Assembly: GCA_963675295.2 (NCBI GenBank)
Contig: CAXXKJ010000002.1
Span: 960,001 to 1,024,000 of the forward strand
Direction of reading: 5' to 3'
DNA from: a bacterium
GTDB taxonomy: Bacteria > Electryoneota > Electryoneia > Electryoneales > Electryoneaceae
Length of the DNA stretch: 64,000 bases
A program made the position numbers and the translations under genes. Positions 3,958 to 53,106 of the stretch are shown here, one piece after another; the first letter of the stretch is position 1, and the number at the start of each line of letters is the position of its first letter. A model generated the notes under the pieces. It worked only from the letters and a program-made list of their open reading frames with translations, was not told the origin of the DNA and did no database searches.

Positions 3958-4716
3958 ATGCCAGTCGATACCAACGTCGAGGTCAAGGAAACGGTGAAGC
4001 AGGTGGATCTGCCTGATACCCGCGCGCTGATGCGCACCAACGACCTGAAGAAAGTGTACACCACGGAAGAAGTTGAGACGACCGCGTTGAACGGCGTCAG
4101 CATCCAGATCAACCAGGGCGAGTTTGTCGCGATCATGGGCCCGTCCGGTTGCGGCAAGTCGACGCTGCTGAATGTGCTTGGTTTGCTCGACAACCCGTCA
4201 GGCGGGGAATATCACTTCCTCGATCAGGATGTCAGCCGTCACGGCGAACGTCAGCTCGCCAACCTGCGCAAACGCAACATCGGCTTCGTCTTCCAGAGCT
4301 TTAACCTGATCGATGAGCTGACTGTGTTCGAGAACGTCGAGCTGCCGTTGCTGTATCTCGGTGTCAGCGCGTCCGACCGCAAGGCGCGGGTAACGGAAGC
4401 GTTGGAGAAGATGCAGATCATGCACCGCCAGAAGCATTTCCCGCAGCAGTTGTCCGGTGGTCAGCAGCAGCGTGTTGCGGTGGCGCGTGCCGTGGTTGCA
4501 AGGCCGAAGATCATCCTCGCGGACGAGCCGACCGGTAACCTCGACTCCGCGCACGGTGACGAAGTCATGGGCCTGCTGCAGCAACTGCACAACGAAGGCA
4601 CGACGATCGTGATGGTCACCCACTCCCCGGCCTACGCCGAATACGCGCAGCGGGTGATTCACCTGTTCGACGGTCAGGTTGTGACGGAGAATATCGCCGA
4701 CCGGCCGTTGCTCTAA
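3958..4716 (+). CDS. ABC transporter ATP-binding protein (LolD/MacB-type)
   Basis: Walker A GPSGCGKST, signature LSGGQQQR, Walker [13 protein letters not shown]-loop VTH. Confidence 0.95.
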   Translation: MPVDTNVEVKETVKQVDLPDTRALMRTNDLKKVYTTEEVETTALNGVSIQINQGEFVAIMGPSGCGKSTLLNVLGLLDNPSGGEYHFLDQDVSRHGERQLANLRKRNIGFVFQSFNLIDELTVFENVELPLLYLGVSASDRKARVTEALEKMQIMHRQKHFPQQLSGGQQQRVAVARAVVARPKIILADEPTGNLDSAHGDEVMGLLQQLHNEGTTIVMVTHSPAYAEYAQRVIHLFDGQVVTENIADRPLL

Positions 4717-4794
4717 TCGACTCAGTACCGCGGGATTCCAAGCCCGGAGTCCCGCGGCCTGTTGTTTCACCCCCATCCCCGGAGACACTTCGCC

Positions 4795-5538
4795 ATGAGT
4801 GAAACGATGACCATGGACAGTAAAGCAGGCGCGGCGGGCCTGAAACACGACCAACCGCTCATCGAAGTGATTGATCTGTTCAAGTATTACGCCAACAACT
4901 TCGTCAAGACGTATGTGCTGCAGGACGTCACGCTGAGCATCGCGGACGGCGAATTCCTCTCGATCATGGGGCCGTCCGGTGCTGGCAAGTCGACGCTGCT
5001 GCACATCCTCGGCATGCTCGACGAAGCGAATCAGGGCCAGTACCTGTTCCTCAACGAACCGGTGCATCGTTTCAACGAGAAGCGCCGCACCGCGCTGCAC
5101 CGGGAACACGTCGGGTTCATCTTCCAGGCGTACCACCTGATCGACGACCTAACGGTGTACGAAAACCTCGAGACACCGTTGCTGTACAAAAAGGTGAAGG
5201 GCAGTGAACGCAAGGGTCTGGTCAACGACACCCTCGACCGGTTCAACATCGTGGCGAAGAAAGACCTGTTCCCACATCAGTTGTCCGGCGGCCAGCAGCA
5301 GCTGGTGGCGGTCGCGCGGGCGTTGATCACCCGTCCGAAGGTGATTTTCGCGGACGAACCGACCGGCAACTTGAACAGTAAGCAGGGCACGGAGATCATG
5401 GAGATGCTCGCGCAGCTGAACCGGGAGGAGGGTACGACGATCGTGCAGGTGACGCACGATGAAGTCAAGGCCCGCTACGGCCACCGCGTGATCCACCTGC
5501 TCGACGGGCGGATCGAACGGGAAGAGATCGTCAGTTAA
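4795..5538 (+). CDS. Second ABC transporter ATP-binding protein (LolD/MacB-type)
   Basis: [30 protein letters not shown]. The start was chosen at ATG 4795 after GGAG and may be slightly later. Confidence 0.93.
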
Positions 5539-13020: not shown

Positions 13021-13338
13021 AGTGGCGAGTTGTGAGTGATGAGTTGTGAGTGATGAGTAAATCATGGGTTACGGGCTACGGACTGCGGGCGGCGGACTGC
13101 GGACTCAGATTGGCAGGCTGCGGACTACGGACTGGGACCATCGGGTTGTGTGAGATATTGACCGGTGAGATGCTGAAGTGATGTGCCCCTGATGGCTTCG
13201 CCAGCAGGGATTATCGGGCGATACAGGCTCGTGATCATCGTTTGGTTCGTTTACCACGGACTTAAGTCCGTGGTAAAAAGGTGTTGCCGTCCACAGTTGT
13301 CAGTAGCTCACGACTCACAACTCATCACTCACAACTGG
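13021..13338. repeat. Composite intergenic repeat, copy 2, bounded by inverted heptad arrays
   Basis: gagttgtgagtgatgagttgtgag near 13027 and its inverse ctcacaactcatcactcacaact near 13314; palindrome at 13251-13276. Confidence 0.8.
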
Positions 13339-22124: not shown

Positions 22125-22368
22125 ATATGTTTTAACTCGGAAGGAGCCCGGGCTGAAGCCCGAGGGCGAGATTGGTTTCGGACACGTTGGGTGAGGGTGG
22201 TGATATGGATGTGCCCGTGTTCGCTTGCGAACGCGGACGATCCGATAATGGAAATCACCTGAGTCCGTTGTTGTTCAAGCTCGGATCAGCCCAGACATGA
22301 ATGTCCGGGGCATGCTAACTTCCGCATATCGCAGCCTATTGCCCGCAGTCCGTACCCCACATCCCGCC

Positions 22369-27378: not shown

Positions 27379-27478
27379 AGAAGTGCCCGTGTTTGCTTGC
27401 AAACGCGGATCATCCGCGCCTGTCTGCACAGCCGTCACATGTGTCGGAACAGACGGATTTAACCCCACGGGGGGAGCT

Positions 27479-29925: not shown

Positions 29926-30155
29926 TTGTATCGACGGTATCTTCTCAGCGTTGGCCGAGCCAACACGGGCAAAATGTTTTTGACGCTCATAGTTCATAGC
30001 CCAAAGCCCATAGCCTGTGGCCCGCTGGCCCCGGGGAGACGCCCCTCCCATCGGGGTACAGAATGCGTTACATTCTTCACAAGTGCACATTTTCCCATCT
30101 CCGTTCGGCGATGGGTTATTTTTGCCGAACGTTGCTTCCTGATTGAGGTTCACGC

Positions 30156-41490: not shown

Positions 41491-43671
41491 CTACTTCATC
41501 AGCACCAGCTTGCGCATCTCGGTTTCGGTTCCAGCGGTCGCACGCAGGAAGTACACTCCCGACGCCAGATTTGATCCGTCGACGGTAAATTGATGCTGAC
41601 CTGATCCGTACGGACCGTGCGCCAGTTCACGCACCTGCCGGCCGAGCAGGTCGTAGACACGTACCGTCAGCTCGCTGGCGGACTGCAGCTGCACCGTGAT
41701 CGTGGTCGCGGCGTTGAACGGATTCGGATACGCGGAAACCAGCAGTGGCGATTCCGGCTGGGATGCGTCCGCGATGAACGTGTCGATCAGGCGCACGTCC
41801 CAGTCAGTCACGGCCGGGCCATTTGCCAGCGTGGCGATCTTGGTGAACATGAACTCGTCTCGAGCGACGGCACCGTTCGGGAAGCTGCCGAAACTGACCG
41901 TGTAGCTGTACGATCCCGCCGGTGCGCCGGCCGGAACGAACTGCTGCATTGTCATCTGTACGCTGCCGCTGGCGGGCAGGGTGATGTCTTCGTCGAGAAA
42001 CGCCGGGCCGTAAGTTGATCCGTTCGGCAGCGTGGCCATCGCCCACAGGTCGCCGGTAATCTCGCTGCCGGTCAACGATCCCGCGTTGATGTCGAAGCTG
42101 AACGAGCCACCGTTCGCCGGGATCTCAACAGGCGCGTTCTGCGGCGTCGCGGTCAACAGCACCGGGTGCGTATCGATGGCGAAGAAGTACGTGTTCCCTT
42201 TAGCCCGGATCGCTTCCGCGCTGATCGTGACCCGGTAGTCCTCGCCAGCGACCAGCGGCAGGGTGACGTCGTCCTGGCCTGGATTGTTCTGCGCGGTGAT
42301 GGCCGGGATAATCGGCTGGCCGGTGCCGATGTTGATCACATCAATCGCCCAGGTGTCGCTCCACTCCCAGCCGCTGAGACGCAGGGTCGCGTCAGTGGTA
42401 CGATCCGCGCGGAACCAGTACTGGTCGACATCCGGCGCCACCGGAAGGTTCGGGTCGTAGTTCGGCGCCCAGGTGATGCGTCCCGACAGCCAGCGATCAA
42501 TGCCCATGTCGAGCTGGATTTCGTACGCGAATTCTTCTTCGTCCGGTTCGTCCATGCCACGGTAGACCGCGCGCAGGTCGTCATGCACCGGCATGTGAGG
42601 TACGTCCGCCCGAACCGTGTCAGCGGTCGCCGGGACCGCAACGCCGTTCTGGTGCAGCCACTGGCTCCACAATTCGACGACGCCGTCTCCCGGCGGGTTC
42701 GTTTCAGAAACGGAGGTCAGCCAACGGTACGGAATGTCGGTCGGCAAAGGCATCGCCGGGTTGTCGGTATAGGCATCCGCGCCGGAATTCGCGTACGAGA
42801 CGCCGACGGCGGTGCCAGACTCATTGCCGTCGCAGTTGACGTCCTTGTTCCAGTAACTGAGGAAGCCCCAGCCACTGGCGACATCCTCAGAACCGCCGTA
42901 CAGGTAGACGCCATCATGTTCGGTGTTGAACAGGCCGGTATAGTGCCAGGTTCGCAGGTCACGTGTGGCTTCGCTGGCGCGCACGTCGAACCAGCTTTCG
43001 TCGATGTCGTTCGGTTCGAAACCAACGTAGGCCAGCAGCATCGACCCGTGATGCGGCGTGACCAATGTCGCGACACTGGCGACACGGTGGCCGACATTGT
43101 CATCCCACCAGCGGTGGTTGCCGTTGCCGTCGGTGCGTTGCAGGTACTCGCGGATAGTCAGGCCACCCATCGAATGGCCGACGAGGATTACCTTGTCCGG
43201 CATGCCCGGGATGGCGAGGATGCGGTCGATAATCGAGCCCAGCGCCGCGCCGGTTTTCATGATCGAGGCGGTGTTGGAATACTCGTCGTTGGCATGTCCG
43301 GCGAATGAGGGGAACCCGCGGCGGTCGAAATTGACCGTAAACAGACGGTCGTCACCGTTTGGAGTGATCGGTTCCAGTGCACGAGTTGACCAGGCAACGA
43401 ATGCGGTGTCGGTGGCAACGTTTGAACTGCCGATGTTCTGGTCGGCATTGGCGGAAAAGTGAACAATCACCTCCCGCGAAACCACGCCTTCGTCAATCAT
43501 ATCCAAACGCGGAACAGTCCACGATGCCTGATTTCCAAACAGGCCATGGACAAAGACCACCGGGTAGGGCGGTTCGGCCTTGGCGGGCAACGCCGGGATC
43601 AGCACCATCGCGATCATGAACACGACGGCGACCATCATCCAGCCATTGCCGCAACAATCATTCTTCTTCAT
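41491..43671 (-). CDS. Secreted alpha/beta hydrolase (lipase-like) with Ig-like and T9SS-type C-terminal domains
   Basis: Signal peptide; PVVFVHGL, GHSMGG, TPHHGS, GDGVV; YPNPFNA...SGVYFLR...RKLVLMK. Confidence 0.9.
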   Translation of the reverse strand: MKKNDCCGNGWMMVAVVFMIAMVLIPALPAKAEPPYPVVFVHGLFGNQASWTVPRLDMIDEGVVSREVIVHFSANADQNIGSSNVATDTAFVAWSTRALEPITPNGDDRLFTVNFDRRGFPSFAGHANDEYSNTASIMKTGAALGSIIDRILAIPGMPDKVILVGHSMGGLTIREYLQRTDGNGNHRWWDDNVGHRVASVATLVTPHHGSMLLAYVGFEPNDIDESWFDVRASEATRDLRTWHYTGLFNTEHDGVYLYGGSEDVASGWGFLSYWNKDVNCDGNESGTAVGVSYANSGADAYTDNPAMPLPTDIPYRWLTSVSETNPPGDGVVELWSQWLHQNGVAVPATADTVRADVPHMPVHDDLRAVYRGMDEPDEEEFAYEIQLDMGIDRWLSGRITWAPNYDPNLPVAPDVDQYWFRADRTTDATLRLSGWEWSDTWAIDVINIGTGQPIIPAITAQNNPGQDDVTLPLVAGEDYRVTISAEAIRAKGNTYFFAIDTHPVLLTATPQNAPVEIPANGGSFSFDINAGSLTGSEITGDLWAMATLPNGSTYGPAFLDEDITLPASGSVQMTMQQFVPAGAPAGSYSYTVSFGSFPNGAVARDEFMFTKIATLANGPAVTDWDVRLIDTFIADASQPESPLLVSAYPNPFNAATTITVQLQSASELTVRVYDLLGRQVRELAHGPYGSGQHQFTVDGSNLASGVYFLRATAGTETEMRKLVLMK

Positions 43672-43794
43672 CTGGATCACCCCTTGGGAGTTCGTGATTT
43701 TCACATTCCGCAAGGTAGGGGATTGAGGCGGCGGGATGTTAGACAGACCTACATCCCGTGTCACGCCCTCTGGAGCCGGGGAGGGTAATACGAT

Positions 43795-43925
43795 GTGCCC
43801 GTGTCTGTTTACAGACGCGGACCTGGAAATGTCGCGTCATCACAGACATGAATGTCTGGGGCACAACTGGATCTTGCCCGTGTTGGCTCAGACAACGCGG
43901 GTTGACCGACGTCGGATGATCCCGG
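43795..43925 (-). repeat. Structured ~70-nt motif, copies A (43795-43864) and B (43874-~43922, partial)
   Basis: + strand (G/T)TGCCCGTGT-hairpin-ACGCGG...ATC-hairpin-GGGCAC. The strand is assigned only by the orientation of the flanking genes. Confidence 0.8.
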
Positions 43926-43964
43926 ACAATACGTGGATGCGAATCACCAGCAAGCAGGAATCTG

Positions 43965-46490
43965 CTACCGGAACGAAATGAGCTTGGTGAAGGTGAACGT
44001 GTCCTGATCATCGATCAGGTCCGGGTAGTGCCCGACGCGCGCATACACCGTATGGGTTCCGGGAGCGGCGGTACCCGGCACCTGGAAACTCAGCCATTCA
44101 CGTGTGAACACCTCCCCGGCGGCGAGTGAAATTGTGTACAGCGGCAATTGGATTTCGTTCCCGCCAGCCGTTTCAATCCAACCCCAGACATCCAGTTCCT
44201 GCGGTTCGTTGAGGGCTTCACGGATCGTGACGTCGAAATAGACCAGCCCGCCTGGCGGCGGGATGACCGTGTACGGATCAAACGGGTCCAACTCGATGGA
44301 ACTGGCGGCTTCATTGCTCACCACCACCGGTCCGGCAGGATCGGATTCGCCGGAATTGAACAATGCAGTGACGGTGTATTCACAGGTGATGTTCGCCGTC
44401 ATGATGTGGGTGAAGGTGGTTTCGGTGGTTTCGCCGAGCAGGGTGTAGGTATCCTTATAGACCCGGTAGTTCAGCAGTTGCATCGGCTCGGTGTATTCGG
44501 GTGGTTGCCAGGACAGGGTGACCGCCGCACGAACCTGCTCGTAGCTGAGGTTTTGTGGTGCTGGTGGCAAGCCGGTCTGAAACCGCCACAGGTTTGACCC
44601 GGCGAGCAGGTACACCTCGCCATCGTGTGCCAGTGCCCGCCGTGGATCGGACAATCCATAGACCGCAGCACGTTCCGTCGGATTGTTCATATTGTGAATG
44701 CCGTACACGATCGCACCGGCGGGACTGGACGTCGTGAACAGGAAATCCGAGCTGATGTGGGCGCCGTAAAAATACTCGACGTCCGGGTTGTCAGCGGAAG
44801 CTGTCAGTATCATGGTCGTTGGATCGGTGGCGTCGACCAGGTTGACGTTTCCGCGTCCGCCGATGGCGACGCGTCCGTTGTCGACATCGAATTCATTTTC
44901 CGTGGTGGATCCATTTTGCAGGTTGAGATTGACCTGGTCAAGCATGACCGGGTCGCCGGGGTTAGCGATCGCGTAACTGTACAGGGATACCGAACCGTTC
45001 ATGCGATACAGGATGTCGGCTTCGGTAACAACACGGTCGGCGTATCCCCACGACTGGGTCTGCGTCAAGTTTGTGAGCAGGTACGGATTGGCCGGATCCT
45101 CGACGTTGTAGACCAGTTTTCCGCTGTTGGCTGAGACAAACAGTCCGCCGTTCCCGTAGCTGAGGCCGCTGTAAATGATCTCTTCGGTATGCGAAAGAAA
45201 TTGCGGGTTCATCGGATCGCTGAGGTCGTAGATGTAGATCCCACGATACTCTGGGCCATCCGGATGTTCGAACACGGACACATACAGCAGCCCATTGGCG
45301 AGTTCAACGTCATACACCTCGCAGCCATCCAGCAGGTGGGTGGATGCGGCTTGTGCCGGGTCGGACCAGTCCACAATCCAGACGCCGCCCCGGTTCGCGT
45401 TCAGCACGAAGACGTCACCCTCTTGTTTCATGTCCGAGAAGCGAACACTCCAGCCCAGTTCGTCGGCGATCAGCGGCAGCGAAGGCGTGGACACGTCGAT
45501 CATCGTCAGCAGCCGTCCCTGCCAGTACGATCCGTACAGGATTGTCGGATCATTCCGGCTCAGGAACAGCCGGCTGAATGATCCGTTCAGGGTTCCAGTC
45601 AGCACGGGGTTGGTTGGATTATTAACGTCGTAGACCACAATCCGGTCCGGGCTGTATTGAGCGATGAAGAGGAAGTTGCCGGAGATGTCGCAGTCGTAGT
45701 TTTCGGCTGTGAAGTCGAACTGATGCACGATCTGAGGAATCGACGGGACAGACGTATCCACAATGAAGCATCTGTTCTGGGCCCAGATGTACGCGCGGTT
45801 GTCCGGCCATTTGACTTTCACATTGCTACCCGTGATCCCCGTAAGGTGGATGAGACCGAGCAGGGACGGGTTCGCGGGATCGCTGATGTCGAGGATTTTC
45901 AGGTAGCCCTGGTGTGTGACCATGACGAGATCACCTTGTCCAGCGATGTCACTGAATGCGAAGTCCGGACTGGTGTAGATAAGGGTGGGTTCGGCCGGGA
46001 TGCTGAGGTCGTAGATAAACATGTCGTTGAACCAGACGGAGGTGAAGAGATAGCCCTCGATCACCTTCATGCATTGCGTCTGGTTGATGTACGTCAACTG
46101 CCGCAGAACCCGCGGATGCTGCGGATCAACGATATTGACCACAACCACGATACGATCCACGTTGGGATCGCCCACCGCGACATACAGGAACTGCTGATAA
46201 ATCGCAAGCTCGAACGCCGCTCCGTAATCCAGTACCCGGTTGACCTCGACCGGTTGCCCGGGCACGGACACATCGAAAATCACCACGCCGCTGTTCGAGG
46301 TCGCGAGGAACAGGTAGTCACCGACCTGTTCGCTGTCGTTGATTGAGCCGTAGGTGTCGTTGAGTGCGACACCGTTGAGGATCAGCCCCTCCTGCTGCAG
46401 GCCAAGTGCGAGAACGGGGCTGGAACAGGCGGTGATCAGTGCCAGCACACCGGCCAGGAATCGGACCATCGTATGATCGCGCGTTTTCAT
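43965..46490 (-). CDS. Secreted LVIVD-like repeat protein + Fn3 + Ig-like domain, no sorting domain
   Basis: Many (I/V)(Y/F)D(V/I/L)SxPxxP repeats; PAPQNL...YRVY...YTVTA...GESDP; ends FTFTKLISFR. Confidence 0.88.
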   Translation of the reverse strand: MKTRDHTMVRFLAGVLALITACSSPVLALGLQQEGLILNGVALNDTYGSINDSEQVGDYLFLATSNSGVVIFDVSVPGQPVEVNRVLDYGAAFELAIYQQFLYVAVGDPNVDRIVVVVNIVDPQHPRVLRQLTYINQTQCMKVIEGYLFTSVWFNDMFIYDLSIPAEPTLIYTSPDFAFSDIAGQGDLVMVTHQGYLKILDISDPANPSLLGLIHLTGITGSNVKVKWPDNRAYIWAQNRCFIVDTSVPSIPQIVHQFDFTAENYDCDISGNFLFIAQYSPDRIVVYDVNNPTNPVLTGTLNGSFSRLFLSRNDPTILYGSYWQGRLLTMIDVSTPSLPLIADELGWSVRFSDMKQEGDVFVLNANRGGVWIVDWSDPAQAASTHLLDGCEVYDVELANGLLYVSVFEHPDGPEYRGIYIYDLSDPMNPQFLSHTEEIIYSGLSYGNGGLFVSANSGKLVYNVEDPANPYLLTNLTQTQSWGYADRVVTEADILYRMNGSVSLYSYAIANPGDPVMLDQVNLNLQNGSTTENEFDVDNGRVAIGGRGNVNLVDATDPTTMILTASADNPDVEYFYGAHISSDFLFTTSSPAGAIVYGIHNMNNPTERAAVYGLSDPRRALAHDGEVYLLAGSNLWRFQTGLPPAPQNLSYEQVRAAVTLSWQPPEYTEPMQLLNYRVYKDTYTLLGETTETTFTHIMTANITCEYTVTALFNSGESDPAGPVVVSNEAASSIELDPFDPYTVIPPPGGLVYFDVTIREALNEPQELDVWGWIETAGGNEIQLPLYTISLAAGEVFTREWLSFQVPGTAAPGTHTVYARVGHYPDLIDDQDTFTFTKLISFR

Positions 46491-46530
46491 TGTTTTATCT
46501 CGTGTCAACACTGGTAAAGATCAAGTCAGT

Positions 46531-46796
46531 GTGCTCGTGCCAAATAGTTTATGGACGCGGACCCGGAATCGTCGGATGATCCCTGCTGGCGGAGCCATCA
46601 GGGGCACATGGAAAGTGCCCGTGTCCGCTTGCGGACGCGGACCCGGAAGCGTTGACACCCGGGTCACAGGATGACCCGGGCCACCCGGATTAAAACGGGC
46701 ACTCAACAGTTCATCGTAATTCTTGCCCGTGTTGGCTGTGACAACGCGGGTTGACGGATGTTGGACGATCCCTGCTGGCGCATCCATCTGGGGCAC
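46531..46796 (-). repeat. Structured ~70-nt motif, tandem copies C (46531-46607), D (46615-46684), E (46723-46796)
   Basis: Conserved flanks and junctions; internal hairpins differ in sequence but mostly keep pairing. Confidence 0.85.
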
Positions 46797-46819
46797 ATGT
46801 TACCACCTGATCGATTCGT

Positions 46820-49777
46820 TTACCTCACCAGCGCCAGTTTGCGGATGGCGGTTTCACGGTCACCACTCTGGACCCGGAGATAGTAGACGCCTGATGCCAA
46901 CCCATTTGCATCCCACTCGAGACGATGAACACCAGCGGCGGCAGAACCATTCATCAGTGTCGCGACGCGGCGGCCCGTGATGTCGTAGATCTGCGCCGTC
47001 ACCTCACCAGATTCGGGGAGGGACAGGGTGATTGTCGCGCGCTCGTTGAACGGGTTCGGGTAGGCGGCTACCGCGAACTCGGTGGGCAAGTTATCCGAAA
47101 CGGTTAGCCCATTTTCTGCTGTAGAAGCGTTATCGTTCGCACCATCCGGTGGTTGGTTGGTACTATCCCACCCGGTCAGTGTCCAGCCTTCTGGGCTAAT
47201 CAGGTCTTTAGCTGCGTCTGTTGGCCCGTATGGCGAGCTTATTCCGGGCAACTTTGTAAAATTAAACGAATCGCCTGCAAGGATCAGACTGGGGTGTTCG
47301 CCTGCCAAGGCCTGGTAGGTGTAGGTTCCGGCTGGTGCGGTACCGGGGACGTTAACCACCACCCATGCACGAGTGAGTGTCTGGAATGGATTCAGATGCA
47401 CGTTGAGGTGCTGCAATGGCACTCGATTACCCCCTGATGTTACTGCAGCTGCCCAGACATCGGTGTCAACCGGTGAAGAGGTGATGTTGTGAAGCGACAC
47501 GTGGAAATACACCGGTCCACCGATAGGTGGCACCTGCAGGTAGGGGTCGTAAGGATTCAGCGTGAGTTGCAGAGTCACTGAGAACCAGATTTCGACAGGC
47601 CCAGCGGGTCCGGATTCACCGCTGACATAATCCGCGGTAACAGTGTAATTGTAGGTACCCGTGCTGGTAAGCAAGTCCAGGTAGGAAGTCTCTTCCGTTG
47701 TTGCGATCAAGTTGCCGCTGCGATATACGTTGTAGCCCTGCAACACCAGCGGTGGCTCATACTGCGGTTCCTCCCAGTTCAGATCGACCAGGGCGCCGCT
47801 TTGCTCGGCGGTCAGGGATTGGGGAACAGGCAGTTCGCCGACGATCATTGATGAGTCGAGTCGGTAAGTGCGGGCAACCGCTGCAGCGTAGATGTCGTTG
47901 CCATCCACGAGCACACGATGGAACCACATCGCATTGTGCAGACCGCCAGTGTAAACAGGATCATATGGATACGTGAAATCGTAGATCGAGAATCCGTCGT
48001 AGCGATCGGAAACATAGAGATAGCCGTCCGCGACCAGACCGCCGTAACTGTAGATGTCGTTAAAACCCGTCCTGTGTTGGATGTTTGTAGGATTGGATAC
48101 ATCAAACACTTCAAAGTACTGGTCGTCCCCAGTGACAACCAAGTAGCCATCGTTGTATGACACCTCGTAGTAGATCGAGGCTTGTGAGTTATAGGGATAA
48201 GATGTGTTGTAAGTATCAAGCAGAACGGGTGCAGCCGGATCGGACACGTCGTAGCTGTGAAGATCATCGTTGTCGCCCTGACCGACGACAAAGAGAATAT
48301 CGTCAGCCAATGTGAGCCGGTCTTCTTCACTCCATTGGGTTACTGATCCAATGATGGCTGGGTTCGCGGGATCGCTGATATCGTAAACACCGACGATACC
48401 GTTGGCAGCGATGTAAGCAAAGTCGTCCCCGATCTCGATTTCGTAGATGCTGGATTTAGGTTGATACGTAACAGGCTGGGGGTTGTGCGGATCGCTGACA
48501 TCAAAGATGTGTAAGCCGGTTCTGTCATGATCGCCGCCCAGTTCCCGGCACCCAGCGTATAGATAATCGCCAACCAGTTCCATGTCGGTAATGCGGAATC
48601 CATTCCAGACATAGACGCTAACTGGGTTGTCCGGATCGGTCCAGTCAACCAGCCAGATGCCTTGAGCTCCGGCCGAGTAGACAATCGACCCCAATTTACG
48701 CATGTGAAAGGGCACGAACGTATGGCCGAAGGCATTAACCTGATCTGGATTGAGGTGGTCGGTCAGATCGTAGACCAGGAACAGGTCGTCGTAAACTCTT
48801 GAAGTAGTCTCTACTGCGCCAATAATCAAGTCTTGCGAGGGTGATGCGAAAACAAAATCTTCGATGAAATCAACAGGCGCTTGCCCGGCTTCGATCAAGT
48901 TCAATGGGTCGTTGATGTCATAATAGATCAGGTACGCGCTGGTATAATCATCTGTTATTTGGGATAGTACCAGCCAGTTGTCATTGAACTCGAGGTCATA
49001 GTCTTCTGAATCATCAAGGAAGTACTCATCAGCCAGTGTTGGATTTGAAGGATCGATAATGTCATAGGCACATATGTGGTCGTCACCTGTTTCAGCGATA
49101 TAGAGTGCATTTCCGTTGATGCAAAATTCTGTATAGTTATGGTTGAATCCATAGAGGTTGGACAATTCTAACGGATAACCCGGGTCGCTGACGTCGCAGA
49201 TTTCGATACCATCGGACGTCAACATAACCAGTAGATCCCCTTGCACCTCGATATCGTAGAAGCAATTTCCATCTTCCTGGTACACTATAAATGGATTGGC
49301 TGGATTTGTGACGTTGTAGACACGAACAAATCGATTGTCGAAACTTGTGTCCGTGGTGTACAAATGTCCATTGATGTATTTGATCCTACCCATTTGATCG
49401 CTGACCTCTACTTCAGAAACAATGACGGGATTCATCATGTCTGTGAGGTCATAGATGACAAACGGGTCTATCTGGGGCCAGACAGAATACGACACGAAGA
49501 GATAAGGTTCGGTATAATCGAATGAACGCACCCATCGCATCGGTCCAATTGTAGTGATACGCTGCGGATCAGAGGGATCGCTGATGTCATAGATCGTGAT
49601 CCCCTCATCGCCAACGAACCAGTAGTTACCGACGACCGTCATCTGCTCGATATCGTCGTGCGCCTCCGGCATTGCGGTTTGTTCGAGTGTCAGGCCATCC
49701 AGCACGAGCTGCGCGGATATGGGGTTGGCCAAAAGAATCAAGAGCAAAACGGTGATGAACAACGAGACGCGTTTCAT
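46820..49777 (-). CDS. Secreted LVIVD-like repeat protein + Fn3 + Ig-like + T9SS-type sorting domain
   Basis: IYDISDPSDP-type repeats; YPNPFNE...SGVYYLR...RKLALVR; RBS GGAGGG. Confidence 0.9.
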   Translation of the reverse strand: MKRVSLFITVLLLILLANPISAQLVLDGLTLEQTAMPEAHDDIEQMTVVGNYWFVGDEGITIYDISDPSDPQRITTIGPMRWVRSFDYTEPYLFVSYSVWPQIDPFVIYDLTDMMNPVIVSEVEVSDQMGRIKYINGHLYTTDTSFDNRFVRVYNVTNPANPFIVYQEDGNCFYDIEVQGDLLVMLTSDGIEICDVSDPGYPLELSNLYGFNHNYTEFCINGNALYIAETGDDHICAYDIIDPSNPTLADEYFLDDSEDYDLEFNDNWLVLSQITDDYTSAYLIYYDINDPLNLIEAGQAPVDFIEDFVFASPSQDLIIGAVETTSRVYDDLFLVYDLTDHLNPDQVNAFGHTFVPFHMRKLGSIVYSAGAQGIWLVDWTDPDNPVSVYVWNGFRITDMELVGDYLYAGCRELGGDHDRTGLHIFDVSDPHNPQPVTYQPKSSIYEIEIGDDFAYIAANGIVGVYDISDPANPAIIGSVTQWSEEDRLTLADDILFVVGQGDNDDLHSYDVSDPAAPVLLDTYNTSYPYNSQASIYYEVSYNDGYLVVTGDDQYFEVFDVSNPTNIQHRTGFNDIYSYGGLVADGYLYVSDRYDGFSIYDFTYPYDPVYTGGLHNAMWFHRVLVDGNDIYAAAVARTYRLDSSMIVGELPVPQSLTAEQSGALVDLNWEEPQYEPPLVLQGYNVYRSGNLIATTEETSYLDLLTSTGTYNYTVTADYVSGESGPAGPVEIWFSVTLQLTLNPYDPYLQVPPIGGPVYFHVSLHNITSSPVDTDVWAAAVTSGGNRVPLQHLNVHLNPFQTLTRAWVVVNVPGTAPAGTYTYQALAGEHPSLILAGDSFNFTKLPGISSPYGPTDAAKDLISPEGWTLTGWDSTNQPPDGANDNASTAENGLTVSDNLPTEFAVAAYPNPFNERATITLSLPESGEVTAQIYDITGRRVATLMNGSAAAGVHRLEWDANGLASGVYYLRVQSGDRETAIRKLALVR

Positions 49778-49821
49778 ACTCCCCTCCAGTCGTGATGCGG
49801 ATGATACAGTCTAGCTGACTC

Positions 49822-49892
49822 TTGCCCGTTGCAGAAGACGACAACGCCGATTGACGGTTGTCTGGATATCCTCGAGCCCTCAGAGGCGCGAC
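49822..49892 (-). repeat. Structured motif, degenerate copy F
   Basis: ttgcccgt...gacaacgccgattgacggttgtctggatatcc aligns with copy E (gacaacgcgggttgacggatgttggacgatcc). Confidence 0.6.
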
Positions 49893-49893
49893 C

Positions 49894-52842
49894 TCACCGC
49901 ACCAGCGCGAGTTTGCGGATAGCGGTTTCATGATCAGCCGTCTGGACCCGGAGGAAGTAGACGCCCGACGCCAGCCCGTCCGCGTCCCACGCCAGTTCGT
50001 GGGTTCCGGCGGCTACCGATCCGTTCAGCAGCACCGCGACACGCCGGCCGGTGATGTCATAGATCTGCGCCTTAACCTCACCAGATTCGGGCAGGGATAA
50101 AGTGATCGTCGCACGCTCGTTGAACGGGTTCGGGTAGGCGGCCACCGCGAACTCCGTGGGAAGCGAGGGGACATCGACGATCTCAGAACCTGCGAGAGGT
50201 CCATCGTGCGGTGCCGGATTGGGGGTTGCCCAACCGGACAGCATCCATCCCTCCGACGATGAGGCGTCAGGCAGGGTGGAAGCAGCCTGTGCGACTCTCT
50301 GTCCTACAGCAGCAGCTTTCGTGAACTGGAATTGATCCGTGGCGAGGATCAGATCGGGGTGATTTCCGGCGAACGCCTTGAACGTATACGTTCCCGCCGG
50401 AGCCTGCGGGGGCACATCCAGCAGCAACCAGTTGCGGGTAAAGGTCTCGTACGGACCGAGCTGCAATGTGTACTGCCTCAGCGGGATGTTGTTGCCAGCC
50501 GGAGTGGTTGCCAGCGTCCACGCGTCGAGGGTCTGTGCCGATCCGGTCAGGTTCTCGAGCGTTGCGTGGAAATACACCGGCCCGCCGACCGGTGGAACCT
50601 GCAGGTATGGTTCGTACGGGTCGAGCGTCAGCCGCAGGGTCTGGGTGAACGACACAATTACCGGGCCGGCGGGGTCGGATTCTCCGTTGCTGTAGACGGC
50701 GGTGACGGTGTACTCATAGGAACCCGACGCGTTCAGCAGGTCGATCTGCGTTGTTTGGTCCGTTGTTGCGATCAGCTCGCCATCACGATACACGTTGTAG
50801 CCTTCGAGGATCAGCGGCGGATCATAGACCGGCTCCTCCCAGGTCAAGGTGACCAACGCGCCGGTGAGGTCAAAGGTTAGGGTACTGGGTGCTGGAGAAT
50901 AACTGAAAATATCCGACGAATCAAAGAGATATTGCCGAGAATAGACAGCGGCAACTATTGAATTCCCATCTACGAGTACGCGATTGAAGTAGTATGCATC
51001 CCTGACACTGCCCAGATATTGAGGATCGGTCGGAGAGCTAAAATCCAGTACCGTTAATCCCTCTGTTTGGGAGATGTACAGGATCCCATTCTCTATGATG
51101 CCGCCAGTAGCATAGATGTCATTGGTTCCTGCGACGTAGGATAGATCTGTCGGATCCGATACATCGAACACTTTCAAGTATTCATCATCACCTGTGACAA
51201 CGAGATAGCCGTCTGAGAGTGAAACCTCGAATTCAACGCAAGCATATTCGCGCTCAGGATAGTTCGTGCTGTAGGTGTCCAGTAGAACTGGATTTTGTGG
51301 ATTTTCCACGCTATAGCTTTTCAAGTTATCGTGATCACGTTGCCCAACGAGGTACATCACGTCACCATCCAATGTCAGACGATCCCACTCATCCCATTGC
51401 GGGATCGAACCCACTATCACCGGGTTGACTGGATCGCCAAGATCATACACGCCAACGATGCTATTAGCCGCTATGTAGGCAATCGTTCCATTCGTTTCAA
51501 TCTCTTTGATGCTGGTCTTTGGAAAAAAGTTCGCTTGGTAGGGGTTCTGAGGATCGCTCACATCGAAAATGTAAAGACCTGTACTATTTCCATCTCCGGA
51601 ATAGTCTTCGCAGCCTGCGTACAGATACGATCCTACGAGTTCAATATCGGTTATTATGCCACCGTTAAAAATGAAAACATCCTCTGGGTTGTCTGGATCA
51701 CTCCAATCTACCAGCCATACGCCCTGATAACCTGCTGAATAGACAATAGAACCTGATTTAAGCAGGTGATATTGCCTCATATAATGACCGAAGCCATCAA
51801 ATAGATTTACGTTATACGGATCATTTATGTCATATTGAAGGAACAGGTTCTCGTGTCTTCGGGATTGGATGTAAACTGAACTAATTATAGTGTCTTCTGA
51901 CAGCGAGGGAAACAGAAAATACTCAATAGCTTCAACCTGAGTCTGACTCAATTGAGTGGGATGAAATGGGTCGCTATTATCATAAATTGTCATTGTTGCA
52001 GATTGTAAAGAATTGTCTAACTGTGTCATTACCAACAAATTACTATTATATTGTAGGTCAATGTACCTAGAATCAGTAAGATTTATAGATTCGGTTAAAA
52101 CAGGAATTGATGGATCAGATATGTCATAGACATTAAAGAAAACATCTTCTTGTATAATATATAACGAAGATCCATTTATACGTATTGTCAGGGAGGGTTC
52201 AACTTCGATTGGAATGGTCGAAAGTAAAACTGGAAATTCTGGATTACTTACGTCGTATAATTTAACATGACCGCTATAACTCATGGCTCTGAACATTACA
52301 GCAATGTTTCCTTCTACATTCAGATGCAAAAATGTTGGTGAATCTTCGTATACCATAAAGGGATTCGAAGGATCCATAACATTATATATTCTATAGAAAT
52401 TATCCTGCCAATATGGGGAAGAAACGTAGAGATAGCCGTTGATATATTTTAAATGACCGGCAATCGAGCCAATATCCTCTTGACTCATTAAAACTGGGTT
52501 GTGTACATCGGTTATGTCAAAAATACAAAACCGATCGGCTTCCGGATAGTCTGAAATAACAATATACAGATACGGATCAGCGTAATCGACAGAGACAACC
52601 TGCTGCATTGGGACTACAGTGGCTACTTTCTGGGGTTGCGTTGGATTGCTGATGTCGTAAATGCTGACCCCATCTTCGGCGATGAACCAGTAGTTTCCGA
52701 CGACGATCATCTGCCTGACCAGTCCGTGCGCCTCTGGCATCGAGGTCTGCTCGAGCGTGAGATGATGATAGTGGACCTGCGCTGAGATTGAGGTAGCCAA
52801 GCTCAACATGATGGCTAGAACGTAAAACGAACCGCGTTTCAT
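49894..52842 (-). CDS. Secreted LVIVD-like repeat protein, close paralog of 46820-49777
   Basis: MKRGSF start at 52842 after GGAGGG; co-linear along its length with the neighbour; same sorting domain. Confidence 0.9.
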   Translation of the reverse strand: MKRGSFYVLAIMLSLATSISAQVHYHHLTLEQTSMPEAHGLVRQMIVVGNYWFIAEDGVSIYDISNPTQPQKVATVVPMQQVVSVDYADPYLYIVISDYPEADRFCIFDITDVHNPVLMSQEDIGSIAGHLKYINGYLYVSSPYWQDNFYRIYNVMDPSNPFMVYEDSPTFLHLNVEGNIAVMFRAMSYSGHVKLYDVSNPEFPVLLSTIPIEVEPSLTIRINGSSLYIIQEDVFFNVYDISDPSIPVLTESINLTDSRYIDLQYNSNLLVMTQLDNSLQSATMTIYDNSDPFHPTQLSQTQVEAIEYFLFPSLSEDTIISSVYIQSRRHENLFLQYDINDPYNVNLFDGFGHYMRQYHLLKSGSIVYSAGYQGVWLVDWSDPDNPEDVFIFNGGIITDIELVGSYLYAGCEDYSGDGNSTGLYIFDVSDPQNPYQANFFPKTSIKEIETNGTIAYIAANSIVGVYDLGDPVNPVIVGSIPQWDEWDRLTLDGDVMYLVGQRDHDNLKSYSVENPQNPVLLDTYSTNYPEREYACVEFEVSLSDGYLVVTGDDEYLKVFDVSDPTDLSYVAGTNDIYATGGIIENGILYISQTEGLTVLDFSSPTDPQYLGSVRDAYYFNRVLVDGNSIVAAVYSRQYLFDSSDIFSYSPAPSTLTFDLTGALVTLTWEEPVYDPPLILEGYNVYRDGELIATTDQTTQIDLLNASGSYEYTVTAVYSNGESDPAGPVIVSFTQTLRLTLDPYEPYLQVPPVGGPVYFHATLENLTGSAQTLDAWTLATTPAGNNIPLRQYTLQLGPYETFTRNWLLLDVPPQAPAGTYTFKAFAGNHPDLILATDQFQFTKAAAVGQRVAQAASTLPDASSSEGWMLSGWATPNPAPHDGPLAGSEIVDVPSLPTEFAVAAYPNPFNERATITLSLPESGEVKAQIYDITGRRVAVLLNGSVAAGTHELAWDADGLASGVYFLRVQTADHETAIRKLALVR

Positions 52843-53106
52843 AACCCCCTCCTGTAATGATGCTGGTGATACAGACTCCGTGGCATACGGCCCTATACGC
52901 CATGCCTGCTGCTGGATCATCGCAGGCGGCGGCGGGGGCTCACAGTGATGTAATCTAGGCATGCATCGCGCCGATGTCCATGCAAACCCTTATATTCCGC
53001 GAAATGGTTGACGTGAAACGCTCCACCCCTGACGCTGGAACACCTGTCGATGAAACGTGATCGCCGTCTGATTCCATCCATTCCGAACGTCCTGACCATC
53101 CGGTCA

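Follow-up and report, generated by a model that had tools for sequence, protein, structure and literature searches.

BIME-like pairs of two REP classes and candidate cognate RAYT transposases in the genome of an uncultured Electryoneaceae bacterium

The closest known system to the repeats described here is the REPtron of E. coli, which comprises repetitive extragenic palindromic (REP) sequences, bacterial interspersed mosaic elements (BIMEs) and the transposase TnpA(REP) (Ton-Hoang et al. 2012, PMC3333891). As described in that paper, a BIME pairs two REPs of different types (y with z1 or z2), one of them inverted, across a linker, the bases of the REP stems vary while their complementarity stays, and BIME-2 elements occur as tandem copies in strain-variable numbers. 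According to the same source, TnpA(REP) binds and cuts single-stranded REPs, for which it needs a tetranucleotide at the head and a mismatch in the stem, and the ends of insertion sequences (ISs) of the IS200/IS605 type carry subterminal hairpins. For Pseudomonas, several single-copy genes for REP-associated tyrosine transposases (RAYTs) are reported per genome, each of them associated with, and typically flanked by, a REP family of its own (PMC3337134). Here we describe a double-hairpin motif in the spacers of a secreted-protein gene array that is located in a 64,000-nt stretch (the window; contig CAXXKJ010000002.1, positions 960,001 to 1,024,000, assembly GCA_963675295.2) of an uncultured member of the Electryoneaceae. 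We are highly confident that the motif is a BIME-like pair of two REP classes with dedicated RAYT transposases, and that it is dispersed throughout the genome instead of being an RNA specific to the array.

The likeness to the E. coli system, as far as the cited account describes it, is in architecture. Both have short imperfect palindromes with a conserved head in which the stem bases vary and the pairing is kept, both combine two REP types as a REP plus an inverted REP across linkers of variable length and in tandem numbers that vary between relatives, and in both a single-copy gene for a Y1/HUH transposase is framed by the repeats. The head is GTGCCC here and GTAG in E. coli, and in place of one TnpA(REP) there are two RAYT paralogs that are 39% identical to each other, each framed by only one REP class; moreover, the host is an uncultured bacterium and the system is known from its sequence alone. 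With the REPIN-RAYT systems of Pseudomonas, as presented by Bertels and Rainey (2011, PMC3116915) and in PMC3337134, it shares several single-copy RAYTs with a REP family each, and hundreds of extragenic, lineage-restricted repeats in which singlets occur beside doublets. However, the REPIN of these accounts is a homotypic inverted doublet that forms one long hairpin, whereas the common doublet here is heterotypic and joins L, the first of two hairpin modules, to an inverted copy of R, the second. The two hairpins are different, the consensus contains two separate stems, and inverted neighbours of the same class are uncommon (2 Ll and 2 rR among 83 adjacent pairs). By analogy, the modules would resemble the subterminal hairpins of IS200/IS605 in being single-stranded-DNA hairpins for a Y1/HUH transposase; unlike those hairpins and their miniature derivatives, they are far more numerous, have no IS-like boundaries and are not located on the IS copies of this genome.

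Two hairpin modules within and beyond the array

The genome that contains the window (G000; 4.81 Mb in two contigs, C1 and C2) was analysed along with three congeners (G001, G002 and G003). A first-pass annotation of the window had reported six copies of the motif in the array, distributed as 1, 3 and 2 per spacer. All six were located on the minus strand between positions 43793 and 49892, and the numbers per spacer agree when read in mRNA order. The copies are spread over the three spacers of the array; five are clear and the sixth (49822-49892) is degenerate. The minus strand is the mRNA sense for these copies, all six units are in sense orientation, and they start 2-25 nt past the stop codons of the co-directional genes.

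Each unit consists of two independent hairpin modules, L and R, each of which also occurs singly. Module L reads (A)TGCCCC, hairpin, GGGAT(C/G)ATCC, with a GTGCCCC head and a 9-10-bp stem, and has two main hairpin variants, TGATGGCnnnGCCAGCA and AGACATTCATGTCT. Module R reads CCGCGT, hairpin, ACACGGGCA(C/A), and its forward reading is CCGCGT-YNGCAAGCNR-ACACGGGCAC. As read from the sequence, the R palindrome is CCGCGTCCGC-AA-GCGGACACGG with a 10-11-bp stem that contains one C.A mismatch; on the other strand, R starts with the head GTGCCCGTGT, followed by the hairpin. The geometry of the unit is L, a variable linker of 0 to ~50 nt and an inverted R, with both heads pointing outward. Both modules are short imperfect palindromes in the range of REPs and BIMEs (about 20-40 nt), with GTGCCC(C/G) as the conserved head and no GTAG tetranucleotide of the E. 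coli type at the 5' end; GTAG marks the E. coli class and is no defining feature of REPs at large.

The ends of the motif had been described as pairing with each other. Such pairing (GTGCCC...GGGCAC, with 6-7 complementary nt at the unit ends) is present only in units A2, B2 and B3 of Table 1, and the RNAalifold consensus of the six copies consists of two separate hairpins with no closing stem. Folding of the whole units as single-stranded DNA yielded z-scores of -0.71, -2.93, +0.10, -4.50, -1.36 and -0.79, so that two of the six units (-2.93 and -4.50) fold better than shuffled sequences and the other four do not. On the basis of the z-scores and the consensus, we rejected a three-way junction with a closing stem.

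The observation that the hairpins change in sequence yet stay paired becomes stronger when extended to the whole genome. Of the 106 R copies that fit GCGT-NN-GCAAGC-NN-ACNCGG, 101 form both variable pairs, in five stem combinations (TT/AA in 36, CC/GG in 28, CT/AG in 20, CA/TG in 14 and TC/GA in 3), whereas after shuffling of the 3' halves the number of paired copies averaged 52 and never exceeded 63. The stem variants are multi-copy subfamilies of a DNA repeat. Selection on structure had been recognised correctly in the first-pass annotation, although the selected structure is a REP hairpin rather than a riboswitch fold. We propose that the compensatory changes have accumulated because the hairpin is selected as a DNA structure that would be recognised by a protein.

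A profile built from the six array copies gave 270 matches in the genome at E ≤ 10, including 124 at E ≤ 0.01 (66 on the plus and 58 on the minus strand). The whole unit was covered in 42 of the 270 matches, only the 3' half in 156 and only the 5' half in 57, with 15 others. Using separate module profiles in nhmmer (E ≤ 1e-3), we identified 157 modules of class R and 135 of class L, which form 209 clusters and lie on both strands; the strand counts in the third nhmmer round were 78 plus and 61 minus for R, and 90 plus and 49 minus for L. Single-class clusters were common, with 78 containing only R and 72 only L, while the longest arrays reach five modules. The sequence TGCCCCTGATGGC occurs 57 times, as compared to about 0.13 expected per strand by chance. 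Missing from the first-pass annotation was that the motif extends beyond the array, to four more loci in the window and to about 290 modules in the genome. Hundreds of randomly oriented copies, the picture of an ordinary REP which that annotation had set against its own proposal of a new RNA, is what these 209 loci present.

The location of the modules was examined with gene calls from our own crude model of open reading frames (ORFs), which contains 3243 genes and is 85% coding. Called spacers contained 111 of the 157 R and 107 of the 135 L modules, and a further 19 R and 20 L modules are located within the first 200 nt of ORFs with over-extended starts. The R modules in spacers were distributed over co-directional, convergent and divergent spacers as 67, 36 and 8, as compared to about 66, 21 and 24 expected from the spacer lengths, and the corresponding numbers for L were 60, 35 and 12. 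The modules are over-represented in convergent spacers and under-represented in divergent ones, which is the classical placement of REPs, outside genes and mainly downstream of them. In co-directional spacers, 22 R modules were in sense and 45 in antisense orientation, and the L modules were divided into 33 sense and 27 antisense.

The R module is largely confined to the genus. Allowing for at most one mismatch, the R pattern was found in 121, 107, 17 and 57 copies in the four genomes of the genus (121 in G000, 69 forward and 52 reverse, vs 0 for the control; 107 in G001) and in 1, 3 and 1 copies in three other genera of the family, while the remaining 34 of the 41 genomes searched had none and the reversed-pattern control gave 0 throughout. 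In a scan of 185,579 species represented by one genome each, a scan in which the window's own genome was possibly not included, a stricter exact R pattern matched only one other set of records from a metagenome-assembled genome (MAG), with 54 stretches. Long regular tandem arrays of R-type modules were observed in G003, at C71:15756-16168, C91:6966-7288 and C78:1407-1893, with periods of 65, 100 and 91 nt, respectively, and with the head altered to ACACGGGCC.

Two single-copy RAYT genes framed by the modules

The Pfam Y1_Tnp model matched 12 genes in G000, namely eight identical IS copies and four divergent single genes, and a protein search added a fifth single gene. Two of the single genes adjoin the modules. 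A single L module in forward orientation directly precedes the gene for RAYT-L (C1:220370-220903; 177 aa; PF01797, 26.1 bits at a cut-off of 23), and two inverted L modules directly follow it. The gene for RAYT-R (C2:1305246-1305800; 184 aa; NF047646, 96.5 bits at a cut-off of 80) is preceded by two inverted R modules and followed by one R module in forward orientation. When the modules are read with GTGCCC leading, their heads point outward at both genes, in the same geometry as in the L-linker-R unit. Each gene is single-copy, the next-best match within the genome being 39% identical. The H-x-H motif and the tyrosine of Y-x-x-x-N-P (H59, H61 and Y136) are shared without exception by the five RAYT-like proteins that were aligned.

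The orthologs of RAYT-L retain their frame of L modules, with three upstream and five downstream in G001 (87% identity) and 11 and 6 in G003 (62% identity). Genes of the RAYT-like kind are widespread in the phylum, with matches at E ≤ 1e-5 in 34 of 41 genomes. Judging from gene sequence and context, each REP class is predicted to be the cognate repeat of its own single-copy RAYT, an enzyme of the HUH/Y1 type. To our knowledge, REP-RAYT systems have not been described in this lineage, although no lineage-specific literature search was made.

By analogy with TnpA(REP) of E. coli, the RAYTs would recognise the hairpins as single-stranded DNA, cut them and rejoin them. RAYT activity and local tandem amplification would then spread and multiply the units in intergenic DNA. 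A bolder version is that the heterotypic L-linker-inverted-R unit is itself mobile. The ends of the unit mimic one end of each of the two RAYT loci, and its movement would therefore need both paralogs, or cross-recognition via the common GTGCCC head. We consider such mobility doubtful; if true, the mixed unit would extend the REPIN idea to a variant with two transposases, from an uncultured lineage.

Several observations weigh against the assignment to a REP/BIME-RAYT system. The proposed mechanism rests on homology and on the association of genes with repeats, and the head departs from the GTAG of the E. coli REPs. RAYT-L scores 79.2 bits with NF047646, just below the cut-off of 80, and RAYT-R scores 18.6 bits with PF01797, under the cut-off of 23. 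A sequence search of the PDB gave no match for RAYT-L and only a marginal match of RAYT-R to TnpA(REP) (4er8; E 0.0011, with no stretch passing alone). No close ortholog of RAYT-R was found in G001, G002 or G003 (best identity 43-44%, in fragmented assemblies that are 86-96% complete), though G001 has 107 R copies, and the nearest homolog in G001 (L083) has no flanking R modules. Finally, 25 of the 157 R modules, along with 8 L modules, are located deep within ORFs of the crude gene calls; for R, REP arrays miscalled as ORFs or false matches could account for them.

The copies in the array and alternative readings

The array encodes four proteins, three of which contain the type IX secretion sorting domain Por_Secre_tail (the exception is the product of 43965-46511) and three of which contain LVIVD repeats (the exception is the product of 41491-43764). 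Profile hidden Markov models (HMMs) of the modules, trained on the genome-wide copies, recover four R and three L modules within the three spacers. Three elements have degenerated beyond the reach of these HMMs, namely unit C1, the L part of A1 and the R part of B3, which are detected only by the six-copy model that contains them. Units A1 and B1 start about 20 nt past the stop codons of genes 43965-46511 and 46820-49777, respectively. The rare third hairpin type of B2 is found at 5 sites per strand by regular expression, the pattern being self-complementary.

Table 1. Positions in the window of the array, its units and the modules outside it.
Feature	Position	Strand	Description
Secreted-protein array	41491..52962	-	Four co-directional genes: ORFs 41491-43764, 43965-46511, 46820-49777, 49894-52962
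Unit A1	43872..43945	-	R module of 'CAAG' subtype (43872-43906); linker GGGATCATCCGACG and degenerate L part before R
Unit A2	43793..43866	-	L variant AGACATTCATGTCT (43825-43866) and R GTCTGTAAACAGAC (43793-43824); ends GTGCCC/GGGCAC
Unit B1	46721..46799	-	L (46762-46799) and R of 'CAAG' subtype (46721-46754)
Unit B2	46613..46702	-	GTGCCCG head; rare third hairpin type CCCGGGTCA...TGACCCGGG; R GTCCGCAAGCGGAC (46613-46644)
Unit B3	46531..46610	-	L variant TGATGGCTCCGCCAGCA (46568-46610) and decayed R module
Unit C1	49822..49892	-	Degenerate 'CAAG'-type unit, directly past the stop of the 49894-52962 gene
Solitary L module outside the array	13180..13222	+	From module HMMs
L + R unit with long linker, outside the array	22209..22315	-	From module HMMs
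R module outside the array	27381..27415	-	From module HMMs
R module of 'CAA' subtype outside the array, opposite strand	29948..29974	+	From module HMMs

The copy number is variable, as had been suggested: the orthologous array in G001 has three genes as compared to four here, and its spacers hold 2 and 1 units as compared to 2, 3 and 1. A 100-nt stretch over an R-L junction in spacer B matches the other spacer of G001 at 94% identity. The genes 46820-49777 and 49894-52962 share 52% identity with each other and only 34-35% with the single gene of G001; the higher mutual identity therefore indicates a lineage-specific tandem duplication. Every array gene with a downstream spacer has a 'CAAG'-subtype unit within about 25 nt of its stop codon, and the alignment extends from the conserved C-terminal coding sequence into this unit. 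We infer that the 3' end of the gene and the 'CAAG'-type REP unit downstream of it were duplicated together, and that further units were then added locally in the array spacers. Unit C1 was probably co-duplicated with the 3' end of its gene. As a separate observation, the LVIVD/type IX-sorted family to which the two genes belong diverges fast except for a near-identical C-terminal sorting domain.

The alternative that survives best is complementary to the assignment of the units to REPs: the hairpins could have been co-opted as protectors of mRNA 3' ends, or as barriers to decay, and so determine how strongly the four genes are expressed relative to each other. The uniform sense orientation of the six array units and their start no more than about 25 nt past the stop codons fit with this, and REPs are credited with roles in mRNA turnover in the published account (PMC3479197). 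On the other hand, the hairpins of the array units have no T-run, a scan of the array for promoters and terminators gave no excess over shuffled sequences (terminators at 4 sites vs 5.0 +/- 1.9), and the genome-wide orientation has no sense bias. We regard such a function as possible but rather unlikely, and any effect on 3'-end stability would be a side effect.

The modules could also be miniature IS derivatives, such as end-hairpins of the eight-copy IS200/IS605 element, rather than RAYT-linked REPs. The genome does contain eight identical copies of an IS with a Y1 transposase, and subterminal hairpins are described for IS200/IS605 ends (PMC3333891). However, no L or R module is located within 1.5 kb of seven of the eight copies, the eighth has a single L and a single R module at distances of more than 800 nt, and the modules adjoin only the two single-copy RAYT genes. 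A derivation from the IS is very unlikely.

The proposal of the first-pass annotation, a cis-acting RNA (riboswitch, ribozyme or processing site) that regulates the secreted-protein operon, accounts for copies located 2-25 nt past the stops of co-directional genes and for hairpins with compensatory changes. An RNA of this kind would be new, and the absence of a known family indeed holds for Rfam: a cmscan search of positions 43000-50500 at E ≤ 10 gave no match in the spacers, the six weak matches (best E 3.2) being located elsewhere and far under their gathering scores. A cis-regulatory RNA is nevertheless expected to have a fixed sense orientation and a conserved multi-helix fold, and neither was observed. 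The modules occupy 209 loci on both strands, occur singly and are joined by linkers of 0 to ~50 nt; the folds of four array units are no better than those of shuffled sequences (z-scores from +0.10 to -1.36), and each module frames a transposase gene. Whole units in co-directional spacers are divided into 12 sense and 13 antisense, the array itself supplies 6 of the 12 (leaving 6 vs 13 outside it), and 7 of the 42 whole units are located in convergent spacers. There is no transcriptional polarity, and the motif is therefore not a strand-specific RNA element. The RNA hypothesis is extremely improbable, which removes a false lead: there is no new class of riboswitch or ribozyme here, and probing for cyclic di-GMP (c-di-GMP) binding would be wasted effort.

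The other earlier suggestion, a single-strand DNA recombination site that delimits gene cassettes, was right in spirit in so far as each module flanks a gene for a RAYT of the HUH/Y1 type, but no cassettes are delimited and there is no likeness to integrons. Imperfect palindromes at gene 3' ends and the difference in gene number (four here, three in G001) would suit attC-like or other site-specific recombination sites bounding mobile cassettes, a reading that we practically discount on the grounds that the copies are located at 209 loci in both orientations and not in a single co-oriented cassette array, that the extra gene is accounted for by tandem duplication of a paralog, and that the repeat-associated enzymes are HUH/Y1 transposases and not integrases (no search for intI, the integron integrase gene, was made).

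What remains is the REP/BIME-RAYT assignment, as a clean and modestly useful example from an uncultured bacterium, with two RAYT paralogs, a REP class for each and mixed doublets. The modules can be used to mask repeats in motif scans of the genus, to explain assembly breaks in related MAGs and as markers for strain typing.

Other Y1 genes and repeats in the genome

The three other single Y1 genes are framed by palindromes unrelated to L and R, and the genome thus contains several REP families. One of them (C2:4008586-4009137) is located between two motif matches, and was rejected as the cognate enzyme since another palindrome, GGGGACACTT...AAGTGTCCCC, frames it. This second REP family (positions 2037-2065, 2689-2728 and 4690-4890 of locus L009, C2:4006500-4012500) frames the gene as a third RAYT-like gene (183 aa; NF047646, 70 bits) and also forms a small array beside an L-R unit. 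Two further candidates, C2:4539051-4539716 and the IS200-like gene C2:4386671-4387129, were likewise rejected since they are framed by other repeats. The IS200-like gene (152 aa; NF033573, 63.9 bits) has on both sides a longer composite repeat that recurs about every 190 nt and contains CCCCGAAGGGGTGGCATCTGAC and CCGGGTGCCAACCCGGGG hairpins (positions 1190-1680 and 2190-2340 of locus L012, C2:4385000-4389000).

The cumulative GC skew of C2 rises near-steadily to about 2.5 Mb and is then flat, with no clear V shape of origin and terminus; possible causes are a misjoin, an incomplete replicon and a weak skew. At the extreme end of the contig (L011, C2:4536500-4539756), a fourth RAYT-like gene (221 aa; NF047646, 74.2 bits) is directly preceded by two tandem copies of an ORF for a putative transposase-like protein of about 400 aa, which is a likely reason for the assembly break. 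The IS200/IS605-type Y1 transposase ORF (163 aa; PF01797, 124.3 bits for each copy) is present in eight identical copies (L001-L008), at C1:26543-26908 and at seven sites in C2, and looks like a recently active insertion sequence that is distinct from the RAYTs.

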